In this document: piece by piece, positions 4,458-46,996 of the stretch
How the letters are laid out: each line of letters begins with the position of its first letter
Position numbering within the stretch: the first letter of the stretch is position 1
Assembly: GCA_963717465.1 (NCBI GenBank)
Contig: OY970340.1
Coordinates: 2,016,001 to 2,080,000, forward strand
Origin: Candidatus Bathyarchaeota archaeon
GTDB lineage: Archaea > Thermoproteota > Bathyarchaeia > Bathyarchaeales > Bathycorpusculaceae
Length of the DNA stretch: 64,000 bases
Reading direction: 5' to 3'
The notes under the pieces: generated by a model
The model's database searches: none
What the model saw: only the letters and a program-made list of their open reading frames with translations
What the model was told of the DNA's origin: nothing
Position numbers and translations under genes: made by a program

Positions 4458-5209
4458 CACAACCAAACAATCTCAGAAAGACAACAGAAGTAGAGGTTTC
4501 AGTGGTTCTTCCAGCCTTCAATGAAGTACATAGCTTAGAAACAGCTGTTCGAGGAATTAGCCAGAGTCTTGAGCAACTCAATTATTCGCATGAAGTTATT
4601 ATAGCTGAAGATGGCAGCACTGATGGCACAGCTGAAAAAGCCAAAGAGTTAGCAAAAAAATTCTCTAACGTTAAGCATATTCATCATGACCAACGCTTGG
4701 GACGAGGAAATGCGCTTAAAAATGCATTCAAACAAAGCAAAGGTCAGGTCCTAGTTTATGCAGATTTAGACTTAGCAACTGACCTGAAAGCGCTTAAACC
4801 ACTAATCGAATCCATAACAATTGAAGGTTACTCGTTTTCCACTGGCTCAAGAATGCTGCCTGACAGTAGAGTTGAACGTAGCTTCGCCAGAAGCGTAAGC
4901 TCTAATACTTACAATTTTCTGGTCAGGCATTTGTTAGGGTCAAAAGTTAAGGATCATCAATGTGGCTTCAAAGCATTCAAGAGAGAGCCGACATTAAGTT
5001 TGCTGGATGAGGTTGAGGCGGCTCACTGGTTTTGGGATACCGAGATACTTGTAAGGGCAAGTCGGCATGGTTACAAGATAAAAGAGATTCCCGTTGAATG
5101 GAAAGGCGGAAAGGCTACAAAGGTTAGTTTCTTTAAAGATTCAAATAACATGTTCAAGCAAATCTTAGAGCTAAGACGAAAACTGAAAAAAGAAGGTCTG
5201 AATAAATGA
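4454..5209 (+). CDS. GT2 dolichol-phosphate hexosyltransferase (AglD/Alg5/DPM1-like)
   Basis: SVVLPAFNE, EDGSTDGT, DLD, DHQCGFKAF, WFWDTE; ATG at 4454 overlaps the upstream TGA. Confidence 0.85.
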   Translation: MTQPNNLRKTTEVEVSVVLPAFNEVHSLETAVRGISQSLEQLNYSHEVIIAEDGSTDGTAEKAKELAKKFSNVKHIHHDQRLGRGNALKNAFKQSKGQVLVYADLDLATDLKALKPLIESITIEGYSFSTGSRMLPDSRVERSFARSVSSNTYNFLVRHLLGSKVKDHQCGFKAFKREPTLSLLDEVEAAHWFWDTEILVRASRHGYKIKEIPVEWKGGKATKVSFFKDSNNMFKQILELRRKLKKEGLNK

Positions 5210-5270
5210 CTTTACTGAAATAGAAAAGGAAGCGATTGGAGATTAATATGCGCCTTTTTCTTATTGTATT

Positions 5271-8200
5271 TTAGCAATTATTTTCGTTGTTTTCGGGCTT
5301 TTTGTTTCTTGAGAGTTTATAGGGCCACCAGTTCATTTTTTGGGCTAGACCCATTAAAGAAGGTACGAAGAATAGGATAACGACGGTTACGTCTATGAGT
5401 ATAGCCGCAGCGACTGCAAGCGCGATTTCTTCAAGAATTGCTACATTAGTTAGTAGCAGTGATATGAAGACGATGGCAACGACTAGTCCTAATCCAAGGA
5501 TTGTTGTCCAGATCTTGTCTATGGCTGTTATTATTGCTTCGTTGTCTGTTTTTCCGCTGAGGACTTCCTCGCGTATTCGAGTGAGGAAAAATATGTCGTA
5601 ATCTATCCCAACTCCAAGCATTGTCACAACAACGAATAGAGGCGCAAAGTCCAGAATGGGCAGGTTGAGACCATAGTAGAATATGCCGTAAGTAAAGGCC
5701 AAAGAGCAAACAACACTGCAGAGGATCGTTATTATCAAGCGGATAGGCGTGAAAGCTGAACGCAACTGGAAAAAGAGGATCACATAGATTGCAGCTGCGA
5801 GGATGGCTATGACTTCAGGAATCAGGCCAGTCATGAACGTTATGCTATCATATGTTGATTGTGTTTCTCCACCGTAGTAAACATTTATGCCGTTTAGGGA
5901 CAGGTTACCAATATTCTTTTCTACACCCTTAAGCGAGTTGATAGCGGCTAAGCTATCTGCTGAGTTAGAAAGATTAACCGTTATAATAGCCGTTTTATTG
6001 TCTTGTCCAATTGTTGTTAACATTTGGCTCTCGTACTGCTGCCGGATTTGGTCAGGCATGTTTCCTAAGCTGGTGTAGTTGAATGCGCTTCCAAATGGTC
6101 TTGTTGTGCTTGAAACGCTTGACACTCCGTTGGAGGTTGCAGCTGCTGCTGTGATTTGCTCGATCTGGTTTAGCAAAGTCTGGTTAAATTGGTTGTCTCC
6201 ATAAGTTATCGGTGTAGCAGTTGTAACAACGATTTGAGTTGGCGATAATGCTCCGCTACCGAAATCGTTTGATATTGCTGCAAGTCCTTGATTGCTTGAG
6301 AAGTTGGGAATCAACCTGAGAAATTCTTCGTCAGTTGGCGTATTGTACACGACGATAAAGGCACAAATCGAAATAATGCTAATTATGATTATTACAGGAA
6401 TTTTACGTTTAAGAGTGCTTTGACCCAAGCGTCTTAGTATGCTTTTTTTCGGACCAGCTTTTTGGTCAAGTTTTACCATGCTTTGCTTATTTAGTCTTGG
6501 CCAAAAAATTCTGTCACCTAAAGCAATCTCAAGAGCCGGTAGCAAAGTCAAAGATGCCGCAAGCAAAATCGAAACTCCGAACACTATTGCAATACCAACA
6601 TCGCTAAAGATGGGCACATTGACAACAGCCATCACGATGTAAGCAGCAATGACCGTTATGCCTGCTGTAAGCACTGCTTGACCAGCCCATTTAATAGAAA
6701 TGCCTACACTTTCCTGGATTGGTTTTCCTTTTAGTCGCTCTTCTCTTGTGCGTCTAAGCTGCAAGACTGAATAGTCAACCGCTAAACCTAACATTAAAAG
6801 TATGGTTAAGGTTGGTGTAAGGAAAGTTATGTTTCCGCCGCCAATCTTTACAAATCCTTCGTATATTACTGCAAGTGCTACTGCAATCGAAACGCCGCCT
6901 AATAGGACTGGAATTAAAGCTGCCAAGGGAGCCATAAAGAGTAAGCCAACAATCACCAGTGAAATTATTATGCCTGGTCCAATGGTTAATTCGAGGGCGG
7001 GCAAGAAGACGTTGCCGGCATCTTGAGTCACTACTGGACCGCCAGTCACATAAACAGTCCCAAAGTTTTGAAGACCTGAATTTTGTACGTCAGATTCTAC
7101 ATTGGCAATAGTGTTACTATCAGGATTGGAGGAGAAATTAAATACAATCAGCATAGTGTTATTCTGTGAGTTAACGAAGTTACCAGTTAACGATGTTGAC
7201 ATTGCATACGGGTAGTTTGCGTATGGTTGAGTTGCAATTTCGTTATCGATAGCTTGGTTTATATCGCCACTTGTTGAATTAGGCGAAAGCTCTGAAAGAA
7301 GACTGCTAAGAGAAGCACTATTCACGTTGAATAGTGGCGACTGCGTGAAGGTGCTTTCAGTTGCGTTAGCTATAAGGTCGCACGCCAAGTTCCACGTTTG
7401 CGAGTTATCAGTTGTTGAGCCAAGATTATATGTAGATTGCATCAGATCTGAAAGTGAAAAACCTTGGTCTCCAGATGCCAAGTTTGAGTAACTATTTTCT
7501 AAAAGGCTAATTGCGTAGTTTCCCAGAGTCGCATTTGAAGGCGATTGCCCAAAACCGTACAAACTACTCAAAAGATCAGTTGCAGAAACTCCAAGGGCAG
7601 ATGACAAGTCTGAGGGAATACTTGACGTCATTGTTGAAATTGTCAAGTTCTCTAATGCTTGAGGCTGATTCCAATTCGATACGGTTAGACCTGAGGCGAC
7701 AAGACCAAGCATTTGGCTAGCTTGTTCATCAAGTTGTGTATTGTTCAAAAAATCTGTAACTGCATTGCCTATTGCGTAGGCCTCGCGGTCAAATGCTGTT
7801 GTGTTACTTGGAAGAGATTGGAAGCTTGCGTTCCAGTAGTTATAGAATGTCGAGTAATATGCAATGGCTTCGTCGTTGCCTAAGTTGGATGAGGTGTTGA
7901 ACATGTTGTTTGCATAGGCGCTAGCTGCGATTGGGTCAGACGTATTAGACATGGCTTGTTGCCATATGTAAACGAAACCGGTTGGTATGCCGTAAACCAT
8001 TTGTGCTGTTTGGTTAATGCCGTCTTGCAGTTGGAACAGGTTTGTGCTCAGGGTGGTTAGGTTATCCTGTAAAGAGTATAATCCTGAGTTGATTGTTATT
8101 ATGTTTGCTTGAAGGTTTGCTGTCTGATTAAGTATGTCGGGTAAGGACTCATTAAGAAGGTCTGCTTCTACTGAGTAAAGACTTTCTACACCAGTGCAGT

Positions 8201-37958: not shown

Positions 37959-38534
37959 TTAAATCGTGGTTTTTCTTTGTTTAAGATAGTCTATTTTTGC
38001 ATCTGGTGGAAGGAACAGTGATTCAATGTTTCTTAGCGAGAATGGTTTGAGAACGAGGGCTTCTTTGTCTGTGGTAATATTGAAATTTTGCATGCTCCAT
38101 GTGCGACTTTTCTGTTCGCCTCTTAGTCTTCTGAGGAATGACAAGTAGCTTTCATAGTTTTTGTGAACAGATATCATCATTATGTTTGCGTCCAAGCCTT
38201 GTCCTTCCATGCAGCAGAGTATTTCTGGTTGTTCACCCATCCATTTCCGAGCTTTTGATATTTGTTCCTGTGTTAGCGGCGCGGCAGGCGCACCGAATGA
38301 GAGTGCAATAATCTCTATGCCAAGCTTGTTGAAATTGGGTATCACTGTATACTCGTTTATGTAACCTTCTTGTTCTATCTCTTTCCTTCGTCTGGACGCT
38401 GAAGTGTTGGTTATTCCTAAATGTCTGGCAAGTTCTCTGTCGCTGCTTGCCCCTGCCTTTATTAGAGCCGCAAGAAACCTCAACTTTTCAAGAATTTTTT
38501 GGTTTTGACGGTTCTGTCTTGATCTTTCCGTCAC
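37959..38534 (-). CDS. Lrp/AsnC-like wHTH transcriptional regulator, divergent from the Mo/W enzyme
   Basis: SDRELARHLGI..ASRRRKEIEQEGYINEYTVIPNF.KLG. Confidence 0.8.
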   Translation of the reverse strand: MTERSRQNRQNQKILEKLRFLAALIKAGASSDRELARHLGITNTSASRRRKEIEQEGYINEYTVIPNFNKLGIEIIALSFGAPAAPLTQEQISKARKWMGEQPEILCCMEGQGLDANIMMISVHKNYESYLSFLRRLRGEQKSRTWSMQNFNITTDKEALVLKPFSLRNIESLFLPPDAKIDYLKQRKTTI

Positions 38535-38719: not shown

Positions 38720-41050
38720 ATGGGAGATAGAATGATGAGTGAACAAATTGTAGACCCTAAAAGTTTCGATGGACTTCACAGATGCATATGCGGTTTTTGC
38801 AGTACCGGATCTTGTCAATTGCTTGAAACAGTTCAAAACGGTAAAATCGTTAAGGTTGAACCTGACTGGGAAAGCCCATTTAACCCTGGGCCGTACTGTC
38901 AGAAGTGGAAGTACAGTCTAGAATACATTTACAACAAGGACAGGCCAATGTACCCAATGAAGCGCATTGGCAAGCGTGGCGAAGGCAAATGGCAAATAAT
39001 ATCCTGGGAGCAGGCGGTAAGCGAAATAGGCGCTAAGATGAAGGAAATCATTGCAAAGTATGGTGCTGAAACTACTTGTGGTTTCTGGGGTACAGGTCGA
39101 GCCGCAAACTTAGGTTTAGGGCTTGCTAGTTATTTTGTTTTGATTGGCAGTCCGAATTTTGGTTCGATTGCGGCTCAGACATGAGCTGGACCCACGAACC
39201 AGGCCCTAGGATTGGGTTATGGCGTGGGAATTACGTATGCAATGATTATCCCTGGCAAGACGAAAGGTATCTTTGTTGCTGGTACGAACCCGAGTGAGTC
39301 TTGGACTTATTCTTGGCCTGCTTTCGTTGCGGGATTGGAGGCTGGCACGAAAATGCTCTGTATTGATCCGCGATTCAGTGAGACTGCGAGGCTTTCTGAA
39401 AAATGGTTGGCGATTAGACCTGGGACTGATGCTGCATTGTTTATGGCAATGATAAACGTGCTCATTGAAGAGGACCTGTATGATCATGATTTTGTGGAGA
39501 AATGGACTTTTGGATTTGACAAGCTCAAGGAACGGGCTAAGCAGTATACGCCTGAGAAGGCTGCAGAGATAACTTGGATTCCAGCTGAGAAGATCAGGGA
39601 AGCAGCAAGGTTCATAGCGAAGAACAGTCCATGCACTTTCCCGTTTGCCTACGCGATTGAATCATCAGGCAGGAACTCTTTAAGCAACGTTCGCGCAAAA
39701 TACATGATGCCCGCGTTAACCGGCAACATCGATATTGAAGGCGGCGAATACCTACACGCAAAACCGAAATTTCTTGGCGGCACAATGGCAATGCACGATA
39801 TAGCTGCGTCAGCAGATGTTGATCAAATGATGAAGCAGGTTGGATTGGATAAGTATAGAGCGTTGAACTTTACGATTGCTCCCTTGATTAATCAGGCAGC
39901 TGATGCAAAAGGATACTGGACAGGTGGTGCTCACTCCTCTGGAACAAGAGGTCCAAACTTCCCGACCTTTACAGATACAATGGTATCAGAGAAGCCCTAT
40001 CCAATCAAAGCTATGATTTCCGGTGAAGTAGGTCCAATGCGGAATTATCCAAACATCAAGAAAGTCTATGAAGGTTTGAAGAAGCTTGAACTGTTCGTTT
40101 ACATTGAATGCGCTCAAATGACGCCTGAAGCAATGATCGCAGATTATGTTTTGCCTGGCACTAGTCAATTTGAGAGAAATTCCGGCTACGCGACTGTTTC
40201 ATGTCAAGGTGAAATTGAGTTTGAGATCGCTGGTGATCGTGCCGTTGCTAGCAAAATACCTGGACTATGGGATCTAAGAGATGATAGCATAATATACCGT
40301 GATCTCGCAGTTGCAACACTTGGAAACGAAAAAGTTGATAAAGTTTGGCCTTGGAAGACTTTAGAAGAGTTTCAGGACATTTTCTATGAGCCTGCTGGTT
40401 GGACGCGCAAACAGGTGATTGAGGAATGGAAGGGTGTTCCGCCGTATGAGCCGAAATTCAAGAAGTACGAGGAGATTGATCCTGAGACTGGACAGATTAG
40501 GGGCTTTGGTACTCCTGAGGGTAAAGTTGCTTTCTACTCTACGATTTTGGAGCAGCTTGATTATGATCCGTTGCCGTATTATCAGGAATGTGCTTGGACG
40601 CCAATCAGTGCACCTGACATCGCAAAAGACTTTCCGTTGATCATGTGTAGTGGTGCCAGATTCCAGGAAGCTCACCATGGCGAACTACGACATATTAGCT
40701 TGATGCGTCATTTGCGGCCTTTTCCACGTGTAAAAATGCATCCTTTGACAGCGCGTAATATGGGTATTGGTGATGGCGAGTGGGTTTACATTGAGACTCC
40801 TGTTGGCAGGTGCATGCAGCAAGTGCGGTACGATTTCGGCGTTAATCCGAAGGTTGTTTCGCCTGAGCATGGTTGGTGGCGTCCAGAATTGCCCGGTGAG
40901 GAGCCATTCTTGCATGGATGGACTGACTGGAACATTGACGTTACAATCCCGAACGATGCAGAACAACTTAGCCCAGAACTTGGAGCCTGGTGCTTCAAAG
41001 CGGCGCTCGCAAAAGTGTACTCAGCCAACATTGGACCAATGGGACCATAA
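38720..41050 (+). CDS. Cytoplasmic Mo/W-bisPGD oxidoreductase, acetylene-hydratase-like family, with in-frame TGA (39182-39184) at the metal-ligand position; candidate selenoprotein (~776 aa)
   Basis: The two track ORFs are in the same frame (offset 492 nt); CGFCSTGSC..C [4Fe-4S] motif; RGEGKWQIISW; GSPN..T*AGP; IDPR; IRPGTDAAL; C-terminal EHGWWRPE; no Tat signal. Confidence 0.85.
39185..39228 (+). promoter_or_regulatory. Putative bacterial-type SECIS hairpin within the CDS
   Basis: CCCACG(39191-96)/CGTGGG(39223-28), CCA/TGG and GGCCC/GGGTT pair around apical TAGGATT, 22 nt after the UGA. Confidence 0.6.
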
Positions 41051-41067
41051 ATTACGAGAAAATAGAT

Positions 41068-41090
41068 CTTTCCTCTTTTCTTTTTTTTTT
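41068..41090 (+). terminator. Archaeal oligo-T terminator after the Mo/W enzyme
   Basis: Pyrimidine run ending in T10, starting about 18 nt after the stop. Confidence 0.6.
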
Positions 41091-41169: not shown

Positions 41170-41532
41170 ATGAAAGCTAAAATAGTGAAGGCTAACTCGT
41201 TAAAGGAAACATTAATACGTGAAAACTGTGGTGTAGCCGAGAATTATCGTTCAAGAACTGTTTCCATCGCTCAAGCTCGAGTAAAACCTGGTAAAACAAC
41301 AGTTGCTCATCATCTTAAGGATGTTGAAGAAATTTATTTAATCATACAAGGCACAGGCAAAGTTTTTGTTGGCGACCTAACGCCTACTGAAATTGGAGTC
41401 GGCGATGTTGTTGTTATTCCGCCAAATGTCTCCCAGAAAATAGCAAACGTTGGCAAAACTGACCTAATTTTCAGCTGCATCTGCACTCCCTGTTTCACAG
41501 CAGAATGCTACGTGGATGAAGAAAAGCAATAG
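41170..41532 (+). CDS. Cupin-domain protein
   Basis: AHHL..VEEIY..IQGTG, GDVVVIPP, I.N.G. Confidence 0.85.
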   Translation: MKAKIVKANSLKETLIRENCGVAENYRSRTVSIAQARVKPGKTTVAHHLKDVEEIYLIIQGTGKVFVGDLTPTEIGVGDVVVIPPNVSQKIANVGKTDLIFSCICTPCFTAECYVDEEKQ

Positions 41533-42067: not shown

Positions 42068-44019
42068 ATGCAGTTTAAGTTAACAGCGCCCTACACGGCT
42101 TCACCGGGGCAAGAGGAAGCCGTCAAAAAGCTTGTCACTAACTTGGCCCACAAAGATAAGCAGACGCTCTTGGGCATCACAGGCAGCGGCAAAACCTTTG
42201 TTATGGCGAATTTAATTAATAAACTGCAAAAGCCCACCTTGATCATAGCTCATAATAAGATTTTAGCCGCCCAATTGTATGGTGAACTCAAAGAGCTTTT
42301 TCCTGAAAACCGTGTTGAATATTTTATTTCTTTTTATGATTATTACCAGCCTGAATCCTACATGCCTACAACAGATACGTACATTGAGAAAGATTCAGAT
42401 GTAAATGAACAGATTGAGAAAATGCGAATGCATGCTGTTTCAAGCATTGTCAGCCGTAACGACACGATTATTGTGGCAAGCATCAGTTGCATTTACAGTC
42501 TTGGTAACCCGGAAGATTTCAAAAGCCTAGCAGTCGAGTTAACTGTTGATAAACAATTTACTCGACAAGAGTTAATTCATGCTTTAGTTGATATGCAGTA
42601 TGAGCGTAACGATATGGCACTTGAACCGGGCAGGTTTCGAGTCCGCGGAGACGTGATAGATGTTGTTCCCGCCTACGAGAATGACATTTTGCGCGTAGAG
42701 TTGAATGGAAATAGAATTTGCAAAATTAAAGAAGTTGATCATTTAACTGGAAACGTAAAAGTGACTCTCGACAGAACCACACTTTACCCAGCAAGGCAAT
42801 ATGTAGTCCCTGAGGAAAAGCATGCACTTGCGCTTGAGCATATACAGCAAGAGTTGGATCAGCGGTTGCTTGAGCTTCCGCCTTTTGAAGCGCACAGGCT
42901 TAAGCAGAGGACAAATTATGATTTAGAGATGATTACGGGAAATTGGTTTCTGTTCTGGAATGGAAAATTACAGCAGGCATTTCGATGGGCGAAAACCAGG
43001 TGAGCCGCCGTTTACTTTGATGGATTATTTCCCAAAAGATTACTTGTTGATTATTGATGAGAGTCATCAGACAATTCCGCAATCAAGAGCCATGTACAAC
43101 GGTGACTATGCAAGGAAAAAGAACCTTGTGGATTTCGGCTTTAGACTGCCAAGCGCTATCGATAACAGGCCTTTAAAGTTTGAAGAGTTTGAGAAGAAAA
43201 TGGGCAAAACCCTTTTTGTATCTGCAACGCCTGCTGAGTATGAGTTGGAAAAAAGTGGTCCCGCCGGTGGAATTGATTACCCGGCCAACTGGTTTGCTTG
43301 ATCCAGAGATTGAACTTCACCCGATTGAAGGTCAAATGAAGCATTTGATGCTTGAAGCTAAGAAGACTATTGAGCGTGGAGACCGCATTTTAGTTACTAC
43401 GCTAACTAAGAGGATGGCTGAGGATTTAGCGGATTACCTTGCTAAAGAAGGCTTTCGTGTAAGGTACATGCATTCGGAAATTGAAAGTTTAGACCGTATA
43501 GAACTTGTGCGTCAACTAAGAGTAGGCGAATTCGATATTTTAGTGGGAATAAACTTGCTGCGTGAAGGTCTGGACATTCCAGAAGTTGCATCCATCTTCA
43601 TCTTAGACGCAGATAAAGAAGGCTTCTTACGAGACGAGCGAAGTTTAATTCAAACTATCGGGCGGGCTGCAAGAAACGTTAATGGAAAAGTATTCCTTTA
43701 TGGTGACGTTAAAACTCAGTCGATTAAGCGTGCGATGGAAATAACAAATTACAGGCGTGCTTTCCAAATGCGGTACAATAAAGTGCACAATATAACGCCT
43801 AAGACAATCGTAAAAGGTGTTTCTCATAAGGAAGGAGTAATCAAGGGTGCGAAACATTTGCCGAAGTCAGATATTCAAAGGCAAATAATCGAGTTTGACG
43901 CGCAAATGAGAGAGGCTGCTGAGAGACTGGATTTTGAGAAGGCTATTGAATTAAGAGATACGATCGCCATGTTGACTAAGTCGTTGTCTCAGAATGCGAG
44001 AATTGAGCAGTTGACATAG
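42068..44019 (+). CDS. uvrB: Excinuclease ABC subunit B (+1 indels near 42935 and 43260)
   Basis: [43 protein letters not shown]-terminal UVR domain across three frames. Confidence 0.93.
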
Positions 44020-44097
44020 GAAAATAACTGGTTTGATGCAAAAAGATACAAAAGCATAAATTAAAAGGTAGTATCTTGCGAAAGGCAGAAGGGAAAA

Positions 44098-46996
44098 TTG
44101 AGCGTCAATCATAAGAGATAATATTACAATTAAGGGCGCTCGGGAACATAATTTAAAAAATATTGATGTTGAGTTGCCCAGAAACAAGTTAATAGTGATT
44201 ACTGGGCTTTCAGGCTCAGGAAAATCCACTCTTGCATTTGACACAATTTATGCGGAGGGACAAAGGAGATACGTTGAAAGCTTATCCGCTTATGCAAGGC
44301 AGTTTTTAGGTTTAATGGATAAGCCCGATGTTGACTCTATTGAAGGTTTATCTCCAGCTATTTCAATTGAACAAAAAAGCACAAGCAAAAATCCTCGTTC
44401 AACAGTGGGCACAGTCACAGAAATTTATGATTATTTGCGACTTCTCTACGCGCGAATTGGAGTCCATCATTGTCCAAAATGTGGCAGTTCAATTCACCCT
44501 CAAAGCCCGGAAAACATCACAAGCCTTGTAATGTCTGAGAAAGGTAAAACTATGATCTTTTTAGCGCCAGTAATCAGGGGCATGAAAGGAACGCACGAGC
44601 AGGTTTTCGACGATTTAAAAAAGCAAGGATACACAAAAATCAGAGTGGACCAGAAAATTTACGATTCCGACTCAATCAAGGATGAAGTGAAACTGGTCCG
44701 CTATGAAAAGCATTGGATAGAAGCAGTCATAGACACGGTTAAGAATTGATGATGAAGAACGTTCGCGAATTGCTGAGGCAGTAGAGCAAGCGCTTCAATT
44801 CGGCAAAGGAACAATGATTGTTATAGACGCCGAGAACACGGATGCAAACAAAAAAAGAGAGCTCGAACGATTCGAAGCTGAAACAATCTACAGTACCTTT
44901 GGTGCTTGTCCCAATCATCCAGAAATTGTTTTTGAAAGCTTAGAGCCGCGAATGTTCTCGTTTAACTCGCCTTTTGGTGCATGCCCAAGTTGTCACGGTC
45001 TTGGGGAAATAATGGAGATAGCTGAAGACCTTGTGATTCCTGATAAGTCAAAATCCATAATGGATGGTGCGTTAGAAGTCTATGGCAAAATGGAGTTAAG
45101 TTGGCGTGCACAGCAGCTTGCAATGGTGGGCAAAAAACATGATTTTGACGTTTTCACTCCAATCGCTGACTTTTCTGAGAAGCAACTGCATGTTCTATTG
45201 TACGGTGATGCAGAGCCAATAAATGGCAGTTGGTCTAATGGCGCTAACATGTGGATGCGCAATGGTTGGGAAGGCATTATGCCCCAAACTATGCGGCTTT
45301 ATCGCCAAACAGAATAGTGAATGGAGAAAAGAAGACATTGAGAAATTTATGATTTATAAACCCTGCAATGTGTGTCAGGGCAAAAGGCTTCAGCCAGTGG
45401 TTCTTGCCGTTCGAGTATTAGACAAAAGCATAATCGACGTGACTGACCTTTCAATTGACGAGGCAGTTAACTTTTTCCATAATTTACCAGAGAAACTAAG
45501 CGAGAAGGATATGGCGATTGCCAAACAGGTGCTTAAGGAAATTAATGAGCGATTAGGCTTCCTTAAAAATGTAGGGTTAGGCTATCTCTCGCTTTCCAGA
45601 GCCGCAAGAACGCTCTCAGGCGGAGAAGCTCAACGTATCCGTTTAGCTACACAAATCGGCAGCAACCTAATGGGCGTTCTCTACATTTTAGATGAGCCAA
45701 GCATTGGCTTGCATCAAAGAGATAATGCTAAATTAATCGCTACACTCCGCAAGTTACGTGATCTTGGGAACACTTTGATAGTGGTTGAGCACGACGAGGA
45801 AACTATTCGAAGTGCAGATTACATTGTGGATATGGGTCCAGGAGCTGGAATTCATGGAGGTCACGTTGTTGCTGAGGGAGCGCCATGGCAAATTGAGAAG
45901 AACAAGAAGAGCCTTACGGGGAAGTATCTTTGTGGCGAATTAAAAATTGAGGTTCCTTCACAGAGAAGAAAAATCCTTGATTACATAACGGTTTCTGGTG
46001 CTCAGGAAAATAACCTGAAGAATCTTACGGTTAAGCTTCCGTTAGGCGTTCTATGCGGTGTAACTGGTGTTTCAGGTTCAGGGAAGAGCACGCTTATGAA
46101 CCAGACAGTTATGCCTGCTTTAAGGCAAAAGTTTGGAGAACGCGTTGACAAAGTAGGAAGGCACAGTCAAATTGATATTCCTCGATTGGTAAGGAACGTT
46201 ATAGTTATTGACCAAGATCCCATTGGCAGGACTCCGAGGAGTAATCCTGCAACTTACACGAAACTTTTCGATGAAATCAGGCGCATTTTTGCCTCAACAA
46301 AAGAAGCAAAAGCACGTGGATACAAGGAAGGTCGATTCTCGTTTAACGTTAAAGGTGGCAGATGCGAAACATGCAGCGGCGATGGCGTTTTACGGATTGA
46401 AATGAACTTTCTCCCAGATGTTTACGTGCAATGCAGCGAATGCAAGGGTAAACGCTACAACAAGGAAACCCTTAGCATCCTCTACAAGGGCAAGAACATC
46501 GCTGAAGTGCTAGATATGACTGTGGAGGAGGCTGCAGTGTTCTTTGAGAATGTGCCCTTTATTTCAAGGAAACTTCAGACGTTGCTTGATGTTGGGTTAG
46601 GTTACATTAAGCTTGGGCAGAGTTCAACAACGCTTTCTGGAGGAGAAAGCCAGCGTATCAAGATCACTCGTGAACTTAGCAAGAACAAGTCGGGGCACGT
46701 AGTTTACATGTTGGATGAGCCTACAACGGGGCTTCATTTTGATGATACCAAGCGGCTTATTGCGGTTTTGAATCGGCTTGTAGAAAAAGGAAACACTGTT
46801 TACGTTATCGAGCACAATTTGGATGTGGTTAAGAGTTGCGATTACCTTCTTGATTTGGGACCTGAAGGTGGTCTGGCAGGAGGAGAAATTCTTGCCAGCT
46901 GGGACGCCTGAAGAAGTCGCTGAAAACTCGAACTCATACACAGGGAAATTCCTGAAAAAAATGCTGACTAAACAGGCAATGGCGATTCAACAGTGA
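44098..46996 (+). CDS. uvrA: Excinuclease ABC subunit A (+1 indels near 44116, 44744, 45315, 46897)
   Basis: [32 protein letters not shown], zinc fingers; restored frame ends at TGA overlapping the uvrC GTG. Confidence 0.93.

Follow-up and report, generated by a model that had tools for sequence, protein, structure and literature searches.

We analysed a window of 64,000 nucleotides (positions 2,016,001 to 2,080,000 of a single 3,053,889-bp contig from a Candidatus Bathyarchaeota archaeon), in which a gene for a molybdenum/tungsten (Mo/W) enzyme of the MopB superfamily is interrupted by one in-frame TGA. The gene appears as two open reading frames (ORFs), 38720-39184 (154 aa) and 39212-41050 (612 aa). 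Both lie in the same frame with the single TGA (39182-84) between them, as a preliminary description of this DNA had claimed. When TGA was translated as selenocysteine (Sec, U), the joined frames gave a protein of 776 residues whose only U is U155, in the context GSPNFGSIAAQT-U-AGPTNQAL. The MopB domains Molybdopterin (PF00384, E 3.6e-29), Molydop_binding (PF01568, E 3.4e-11) and Fe4S4 (PF04879, E 6.1e-08) all scored over the gathering score. As shown in Table 1, the gene has the divergent regulator and the oligo-T terminator that had been described for an intact gene, the oligo-T tract lying about 20-40 nt past the TAA stop. No twin-arginine motif was seen on reading the N-terminus of the protein, and no iron-sulfur (FeS) or membrane partner gene adjoins the gene, which fits a soluble single-subunit enzyme.

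Table 1. Features at the Mo/W enzyme locus (positions in nucleotides of the window).
Feature	Position	Strand	Remarks
Mo/W-bis-pyranopterin guanine dinucleotide (MopB superfamily) enzyme gene, acetylene-hydratase-related subfamily, cytoplasmic	38720..41050	+	776 codons, one in-frame UGA
N-terminal [4Fe-4S] domain, residues 23-72, Cys24/Cys27/Cys32/Cys60	38786..38935	+	Pfam PF04879, E 6.1e-08; aligns with FeS Cys of 2e7z
UGA as putative selenocysteine U155, predicted Mo/W protein ligand	39182..39184	+	aligned ligand Cys in 2e7z/2vpw/9vap
Candidate Sec recoding hairpin (bSECIS/SRE-like), lower stem CCCACG/CGTGGG, 7-nt loop 39207-39213	39191..39228	+	starts 6 nt past UGA
3' flank, 10 T at 41081-41090, likely archaeal terminator	41051..41090	+	no SECIS-like hairpin inside
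Divergent winged-helix regulator, HTH_24	37959..38534	-	Pfam
Cupin-domain gene, 120 aa, downstream	41170..41532	+	Pfam Cupin_2, E 1.4e-09

U155 falls on a metal-ligand position. It aligns with Cys138 of the chain of acetylene hydratase (AH) 2e7z, which equals the published Cys141 by a 3-residue offset inferred from the FeS cysteines, and this alignment bears out the earlier placement of the TGA at the tungsten-ligand column of AH. Thiosulfate/polysulfide reductase 2vpw and FdhA 9vap likewise have their Cys in this column. TGA is an ordinary stop elsewhere in this DNA, as had also been noted: the uvrC-like ORF of the window ends with it, and so do 350 of the 1381 stop-to-stop frames of at least 250 aa in the genome. 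A genome-wide reassignment of TGA is ruled out by these 350 long frames. We put the probability that the UGA at 39182-84 is a selenocysteine codon at the Mo/W ligand residue at roughly 0.9, on the strength of sequence comparison. The proposed site-specific recoding is supported by the alternation of Cys and TGA at this column and by a complete Sec machinery, both given below.

Searching the genome with the protein (tblastn) gave 11 copies of the subfamily in 3.05 Mb, 43-92% identical to the window copy. TGA stands at the identical column in all 11 Sec-clade paralogs, and its recurrence at one column puts the observation far beyond chance. A twelfth, more distant gene (31% identical) has TGT there. 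For most pairs of the eight copies without frame breaks, the synonymous divergence (dS) exceeded 1. The ratio of nonsynonymous to synonymous divergence (dN/dS) stayed at 0.06-0.17 when close copies were compared and reached at most 0.25 in comparisons with the divergent copy G, before and after the TGA alike. Saturated dS together with low dN/dS on both sides indicates old duplicates in which both halves are under protein-level selection and the TGA has been kept.

Relatives in public collections are broken at the same point. The closest ones in a collection of 5.8 billion proteins (63-100% identity) are all 442-607 aa long and contain only the part after the TGA. A 154-aa N-terminal query gave 17 short proteins, 16 of them 138-172 aa long and 51-100% identical. 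The sources of these N-terminal pieces are the genome itself, four NCBI contigs that belong to another assembly, and four small contigs in ENA. Ten were fetched; the nine that are family members all end right before the ligand column, and the tenth belongs to another family. Because 11 copies have the TGA and the N-terminal pieces of independent assemblies end there, a sequencing error or a recent nonsense mutation is excluded.

Frame breaks are common in this assembly, and those within the subfamily count against our reading. Three of the eleven copies (C1:130829-133157, 616621-618949 and 2797283-2799593) are frame-broken, either by assembly indels or by real decay, and uvrB and uvrA (window 42068-46911) are each in two or three in-frame pieces. 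If the window gene itself were a pseudogene or a product of sequencing or assembly error, such breaks would be in keeping with it. However, 11 copies share this TGA, independent assemblies have it too, both halves show a dN/dS of about 0.1, and the other breaks read as indels, not substitutions; the chance of this explanation is practically negligible. The breaks of uvrA, uvrB and the three AH-like paralogs suggest indel errors of the assembly and not decay. Two C-terminal-only fragments (C1:1076144-1076551, minus strand, residues 636-772; C1:616127-616231, plus strand, residues 742-776) with 76-77% identity are probably remnants of further AH-like copies.

Full-length homologs have Cys where the window gene has TGA. 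Among 109 uninterrupted database homologs of about 30-43% identity, 107 had Cys at the column and the other two had Asp. At the level of aligned homolog loci the count was 102 of 109, and the other seven read as local misalignments with a shifted residue context; these loci are distant bacterial relatives (28-40% identity), which inform the Cys column and are not orthologs. The alternation of Cys and TGA at this column, which the preliminary description had proposed as a check, was thus found (107 of 109 homologs against 11 of 11 paralogs). In a quick maximum-likelihood tree with Shimodaira-Hasegawa-like approximate likelihood-ratio test (SH-aLRT) support, the eight intact Sec copies grouped as a single clade (SH-aLRT 98) that has the Cys protein P0012 as its sister and lies within the Cys proteins. 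As judged from this tree, the putative Sec-bearing copies have a single origin within Cys-bearing AH relatives.

Every database entry of this subfamily is annotated as split, which raises the possibility of a real split gene: a 154-aa FeS protein and a catalytic protein of about 600 aa would then be two products, leaving the metal with no ligand from the protein. A GTG 14 codons past the TGA, kept in 10 of the 11 copies, agrees with this. The codons between TGA and GTG, however, are conserved as protein (a G-P-T motif) and variable at synonymous sites, and most paralogs have TTA for the TTG at 39212. The 107 Cys homologs are all single chains across this point, and the break falls exactly at the ligand residue. 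We regard a split gene as highly improbable.

The genome has the full set of Sec genes that the preliminary description had named for a search, tRNA-Sec(UCA), SelB, SelD and PSTK/SepSecS, with tRNA-Sec present twice. The two tRNA-Sec(UCA) genes (C1:845695-845779 and C1:2829638-2829723) scored 71.8 and 61.8 bits in Rfam (cut-off 47), and SepSecS (488.9 bits) adjoins one of them. SelD (240 bits) has its own in-frame TGA at HG-U-SCK. Two open frames of 732 and 730 aa (C1:952742-954940, plus strand, and C1:2827363-2829555, minus strand) encode a PSTK/KTI12 domain fused to aSelB domains I-III and an EFSec-like C-terminus. SepSecS, SelD and SelB copy 1 were over the curated cut-offs; PSTK was below its cut-off (151 vs 290.5 bits) but gave a KTI12/PSTK Pfam match with E 1e-34. 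The second fusion protein is 54% identical to the first and is encoded beside the second tRNA-Sec. Its GTPase motifs are altered (GHCKHGKT and EMPGN for GHVDHGKT and DLPGH), which suggests that it may be without GTP hydrolysis and could have another role. No closer relative of the second fusion was present among the 120 matches listed.

Besides the eleven AH-like genes and SelD, a gene for an HdrA-MvhD fusion is interrupted by TGA twice, at DCSI-U-I and at CNW-U-GYAGAD, which we take to be classical Sec sites. Counting 11 in the AH-like genes, 2 in HdrA-MvhD and 1 in SelD, the genome has no fewer than 14 Sec codons. A scan of the genome for genes bridged by TGA yielded 1220 raw candidates, of which 165 passed a coding-potential filter; few of these were annotated, by eye, so the selenoproteome count is a lower bound. 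One scanned frame, P0258 (C1:2822987-2824225, minus strand; locus L146:201-1439), was not counted as a selenoprotein, its URO-D/MT2-like Pfam match being sub-threshold (E 0.0077). This 412-aa frame has TGAs at U203 and U263 (MMS-U-GCPMGH) with a hairpin after each, and lies about 4 kb from the second PSTK-aSelB and tRNA-Sec genes. At C1:904785-904882 (minus strand), ARAGORN reported a 98-nt tRNA-like gene with a four-base anticodon call (ccgg) and without a determined identity; it may be an intron-containing archaeal tRNA.

The presence of this machinery also bears on the possibility that the UGA is read through with a residue other than Sec, for example a near-cognate amino acid. A Cys inserted at the site would still ligate the metal. 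On the other hand, SepSecS and a Sec-type SelD are intact, and UGA kept in 11 copies over dS >1 makes sense only if UGA gives something that UGC and UGU cannot. The PSTK-aSelB fusion has, moreover, been proposed to prevent such crosstalk, in the accessible part of PMC8762117. Read-through with another residue seems improbable to us, and selenocysteine is the preferred reading of U155.

The host was expected to be Bathyarchaeia-like, and the named relatives of the fusion protein (Candidatus Bathyarchaeota/Bathyarchaeia) agree with this. The expectation that Sec use in such a host would be a novelty did not hold, since a Sec-encoding system with a PSTK-aSelB fusion has already been described for Bathyarchaeota (PMC8762117, section 3.4.1; PMC9499178; in the portions of both that were accessible). 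Bathyarchaeia do not occur in the accessible text of a 2026 review of prokaryotic selenoproteomes (PMC13188914), and neither do acetylene, DMSO or PF00384. A literature search over accessible running text, without figures and supplements, found no description of Bathyarchaeia selenoproteins or of their SECIS (selenocysteine insertion sequence) elements. SepSecS scored over the cut-off in 5 of the 201 sampled genomes of the class.

The preliminary description had assigned the enzyme to the acetylene-hydratase family. This stands insofar as the best solved relative is AH 2e7z (E 1.6e-104, 354 bits, aligned residues 22-767). The function does not follow, for the catalytic Asp13 of AH, directly after the second FeS Cys, is Ser28 in the window protein, and the spacing of the third Cys differs. 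Asp is likewise missing from that column in all 109 homologs. A true AH ortholog is another gene of the same genome, at C1:1817825-1820071 (locus L144:192-2438); it encodes 748 aa, scores 875 bits to 2e7z and has both the CxxCD motif and a Cys ligand (TGT). It lies about 2 kb upstream of the most divergent Sec paralog (C1:1822090-1824366). We rejected the window gene as an AH ortholog on its 354 bits against 875 and its want of CxxCD. Because the catalytic Asp is Ser, the window enzyme is probably not an acetylene hydratase. The 875-bit CxxCD gene with Cys indicates that Cys serves in the true AH-type enzyme of this organism and that the Sec enzymes form a separate subfamily.

No NCBIfam equivalog reached its cut-off (PhsA 253 vs 694; TIGR01591, formate dehydrogenase alpha, 234 vs 666.25; TIGR01553 106.7 vs 814.2). 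Formate dehydrogenase alpha and FwdB were likewise rejected, because the context is U-A-G-P-T and not U-H-x-P and TIGR01591 and TIGR01553 are far under cut-off.

A search of 11 further genomes of the same genus gave no member of the AH-like family. Among four other Sec-positive genomes, two have MopB genes, none of them with an in-frame stop. From these absences, the Sec subfamily is narrowly distributed in the searched set. So far, the Sec-ligated AH-related subfamily is known from the source species, one related assembly and a few metagenome contigs.

A hairpin follows the UGA inside the coding region. We folded the 57 nt after TGA in 1220 in-frame-TGA contexts, and the window hairpin, with a minimum free energy of -19.6, ranked 11. 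The two HdrA/MvhD sites ranked 1 and 2, and the eleven AH-like sites ranked 3-8, 11, 14, 15, 18 and 30. At the AH-like, HdrA and MvhD sites alike, the stem starts 6 nt past the UGA and the apical loop lies about 20-28 nt past it. In the alignment of the 11 paralogs, 89% of cells were paired, compared with 23-47% when the partner was shifted by 1-3 columns. In five pairs both partners change, and the covariation score was reached by 0 of 500 shuffles. The synonymous conservation peak of the gene, measured on seven close copies, covers codons +2 to +15 past the UGA (1 of 380 windows), and the five invariant codons there, CCC, ACG, GGC, GTG and GGA, are those of the lower stem. A second patch of synonymous conservation, 99-114 codons past the UGA, was discarded; it consists of two-fold-degenerate AT-biased codons and has no consistent fold.

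Comparison of Sec and Cys versions of the same gene gave a similar picture. A second genome of the genus (G187) keeps both HdrA TGAs and both hairpins, with substitutions in loops and spacer. Cys-type HdrA genes are without the hairpin: their free energies were -4.6 to -13.0 at site 1 and -7.1 to -17.1 at site 2, against -25.8 and -27.4, and -22.8 and -23.5, in the Sec type. In the SelD orthologs of genomes G110, G103 and G037, the 5' arm of the stem begins 6 nt past the TGA. The SelD of G187 has Cys (TGC) at the site, while HdrA-MvhD of that genome keeps Sec.

Near the Sec genes of G110 and G103 we also observed four genes for surface proteins with signal peptides (L173:17065-18519, plus strand, in G110; L174:1342-2379, 4754-5749 and 5918-7072, minus strand, in G103). 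In each, a hairpin (z -1.3 to -3.8) begins 6-7 nt past a TGA. The TGA lies at one conserved position of a shared N-terminal domain, and the C-terminal parts are Ig-like, CarboxypepD_reg or dockerin-like. These TGA-bearing surface proteins are a candidate new selenoprotein family. With them, the pattern of UGA then hairpin extends to at least five unrelated gene families in five genomes, its statistical strength varying by site.

As a control for the peptide sequence, we fixed the amino acids and redrew the codons from genome usage in 1000 recodings. The native HdrA U212 site was more stable than expected, with z -5.4 and 0 of 1000 recodings as stable; MvhD U682 gave z -2.95 and the divergent AH copies z -2.2 to -3.1. 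The TGT paralog was reversed (z +1.8).

Several results weigh against the hairpin as the recoding signal. In the same control the window hairpin gave only z -1.6 (66 of 1000), and the close AH copies z -1.3 to -2.0. The SelD of this genome had no local hairpin within 57 nt (z -0.2), two SelD orthologs were weak (z -0.3 and -0.8), and the Cys-SelD region of G187 (C5:493518-494399, locus L162) also folds well (-19.6). The fold of the latter may be a relic of a recent change from Sec to Cys. No SECIS of a described type was found: a permissive Rfam search of five loci (E <=5) gave only two chance-level unrelated matches and no SECIS family. Finally, a Pfam search (E <=0.01) of the aSelB part gave none of the wing domains with which bacterial SelB binds SECIS, which leaves the coding-region hairpin without a known reader.

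A structured element in the flanks was looked for as well. For 13 selenoprotein genes, the best local hairpin within 300 nt of 3' flank averaged -11.9 kcal/mol, compared with -14.9 for 250 ordinary genes (one-sided Mann-Whitney, p 0.999). In the 200-nt 5' flanks of the same 13 genes the mean was -11.6 against -13.2 kcal/mol (p 0.955). The best 60-nt hairpin in the 300-nt 3' flank of the window gene was -9.5, against the background mean of -14.9. Oligo-T occurs within about 20-40 nt of the stop in the 3' flanks of all eleven copies.

These results leave two accounts of the hairpin. It may be only a helper similar to the eukaryotic stem-loop named SRE, or may merely follow from a peptide rich in Gly and Pro; the true SECIS would then be an unrecognised element at another place, or these archaea would do without one. 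The weak recoding control in the closest AH copies, the absence of a hairpin in the SelD of this genome and its weakness in two SelD orthologs, and the aSelB without wing domains by Pfam all speak for this account. So does the coexistence of SRE and HRE stem-loops next to UGA with 3'-untranslated-region (3'-UTR) SECIS elements in eukaryotic genes, as stated in the accessible text of PMC4561486. It accounts less well for UTR hairpins that are not enriched and an oligo-T that follows soon after the stop in all copies, for a peak of synonymous constraint exactly on the stem codons, for a hairpin present in Sec-HdrA and absent in Cys-HdrA, and for a spacing of 6-7 nt repeated in at least five unrelated gene families. 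We hold the helper account to be a serious but tentative possibility, with odds of about one against two.

The other account, which we prefer, takes the coding-region hairpin as the recoding signal, as we infer from the pattern of folds and constraint. In its general form, Bathyarchaeia bearing the fusion would decode UGA through a coding-region stem-loop 6-7 nt past the UGA and without a UTR SECIS, a third archaeal mode; we give this generalisation about even odds.

The surroundings of the AH-like loci give some indication of function. Of the 12 AH-like loci whose neighbours were clustered, 9 have a paralogous wHTH (winged helix-turn-helix) regulator next to them. Other neighbours recur as well: four loci have a fusion of an OYE-type FMN oxidoreductase with a pyridine-nucleotide-disulfide oxidoreductase domain, four an MttB-superfamily methyltransferase, three a B12-binding corrinoid protein and two an MtmB-like protein. 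Examples of such neighbour genes are C1:120862-122451, 128254-128908, 1135428-1137419 and 2491711-2493073. The Mtt/Mtm-like neighbour genes showed no in-frame stop in the frames scanned. From these neighbours we infer substrate-specific enzymes that would act on small organic compounds and be linked to corrinoid-dependent demethylation; gene neighbourhood is the one basis of this functional proposal, which counts against it.

Taken together, the window gene would encode a single-subunit cytoplasmic Mo- or W-bis-pyranopterin enzyme with a Sec metal ligand, one of eleven paralogs, each copy under its own wHTH regulator. Sec would be supplied by the archaeal/eukaryal-type pathway, consisting of tRNA-Sec, PSTK fused to aSelB, SepSecS and a Sec-containing SelD. 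Recoding of the UGA would be aided by the coding-region hairpin 6 nt downstream and not by a 3'-UTR SECIS. The substrates may be small organics and not acetylene; aromatic or unsaturated compounds that derive from methylated precursors are one possibility.

Sec use by Bathyarchaeota is not new. What appears to be new is a putative Sec-ligated Mo/W enzyme subfamily beyond formate and formylmethanofuran dehydrogenases, with eleven copies in one archaeon, so that one enzyme family dominates the large selenoproteome of the source organism. For bioinorganic chemists, a Sec-ligated AH relative would provide a naturally occurring Se-W/Mo site in an enzyme of another reaction class; work on synthetic tungsten-acetylene models with Se ligands is already under way (accessible text of PMC11220754). 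Since all public annotations split the Sec genes, metabolic reconstructions of Bathyarchaeia miss them. Also apparently new is the evidence that the recoding structure of these archaea sits within the coding region, immediately past the UGA, and not in a UTR. If the hairpin is indeed the signal, the textbook 3'-UTR location of archaeal SECIS elements needs an exception, and a bacterial-like placement of the signal would be combined with eukaryote-like Sec synthesis. Such a signal could be a missing link between bacterial SECIS and eukaryotic SRE stem-loops, and a simple reporter could then be used to test how bacterial and eukaryotic signals are related. Such a signal would, in addition, have made possible the eleven-fold expansion of a Sec-ligated W/Mo enzyme family.

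Like AH 2e7z of Pelobacter/Syntrophotalea acetylenicus, the window enzyme is predicted to be a single subunit with an N-terminal [4Fe-4S] cluster and the GSPN...C/U..T motif, and no Tat (twin-arginine translocation) signal was seen in either. It differs in having the predicted Sec for Cys141, Ser28 for Asp13 and another spacing of the FeS cysteines. Many distant relatives (28-33% identity) are multi-copy genes of Eggerthellaceae, Gordonibacter, Ellagibacter and Adlercreutzia. The Sec family may in this respect resemble the catechol dehydroxylases of Eggerthellaceae/Gordonibacter. The shared trait is the expansion into many paralogs, a likeness that is backed by the distant matches only. In contrast to the Sec family, the Eggerthellaceae-type relatives, which may include the characterised dehydroxylases, have Cys at the column.

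FdhA and FwdB, with the motif U-H-x-P, are the only Mo/W-pterin selenoproteins in the accessible text of Table 1 of PMC13188914. The predicted Sec of the window enzyme stands at the same structural Mo/W ligand column as theirs, the C/U position of 9vap being aligned with U155. The enzyme differs from them in its motif U-A-G-P-T, in belonging to another clade of the superfamily and in a TIGR01591 score far under cut-off. With the Bathyarchaeota Sec system of Mukai et al. (PMC8762117, PMC9499178), as far as it is described in the accessible portions, the present genome has the PSTK-aSelB fusion (732 aa) in common; here, in contrast, the fusion and tRNA-Sec are duplicated, and the second fusion has altered GTPase motifs.

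Archaeal SECIS elements are stated to lie in the 3' UTR in the accessible text of PMC13188914, PMC11227280 and PMC9499178. Unlike the Methanococcus-type or the Asgard/eukaryote-like SECIS, no structured UTR element was found in the flanks analysed here. With bacterial SECIS elements and the eukaryotic SRE/HRE (PMC4561486, accessible text), the candidate hairpin shares the form of a coding-region stem-loop just past the UGA. It differs from bacterial SECIS elements in its archaeal host, in the lack of Pfam wing domains in aSelB and in having no Rfam SECIS match. Unlike the bacterial-type system, Sec would here be made by the PSTK and SepSecS pathway, and by Pfam the elongation factor part consists of aSelB_III and an EFSec-like C-terminus only.

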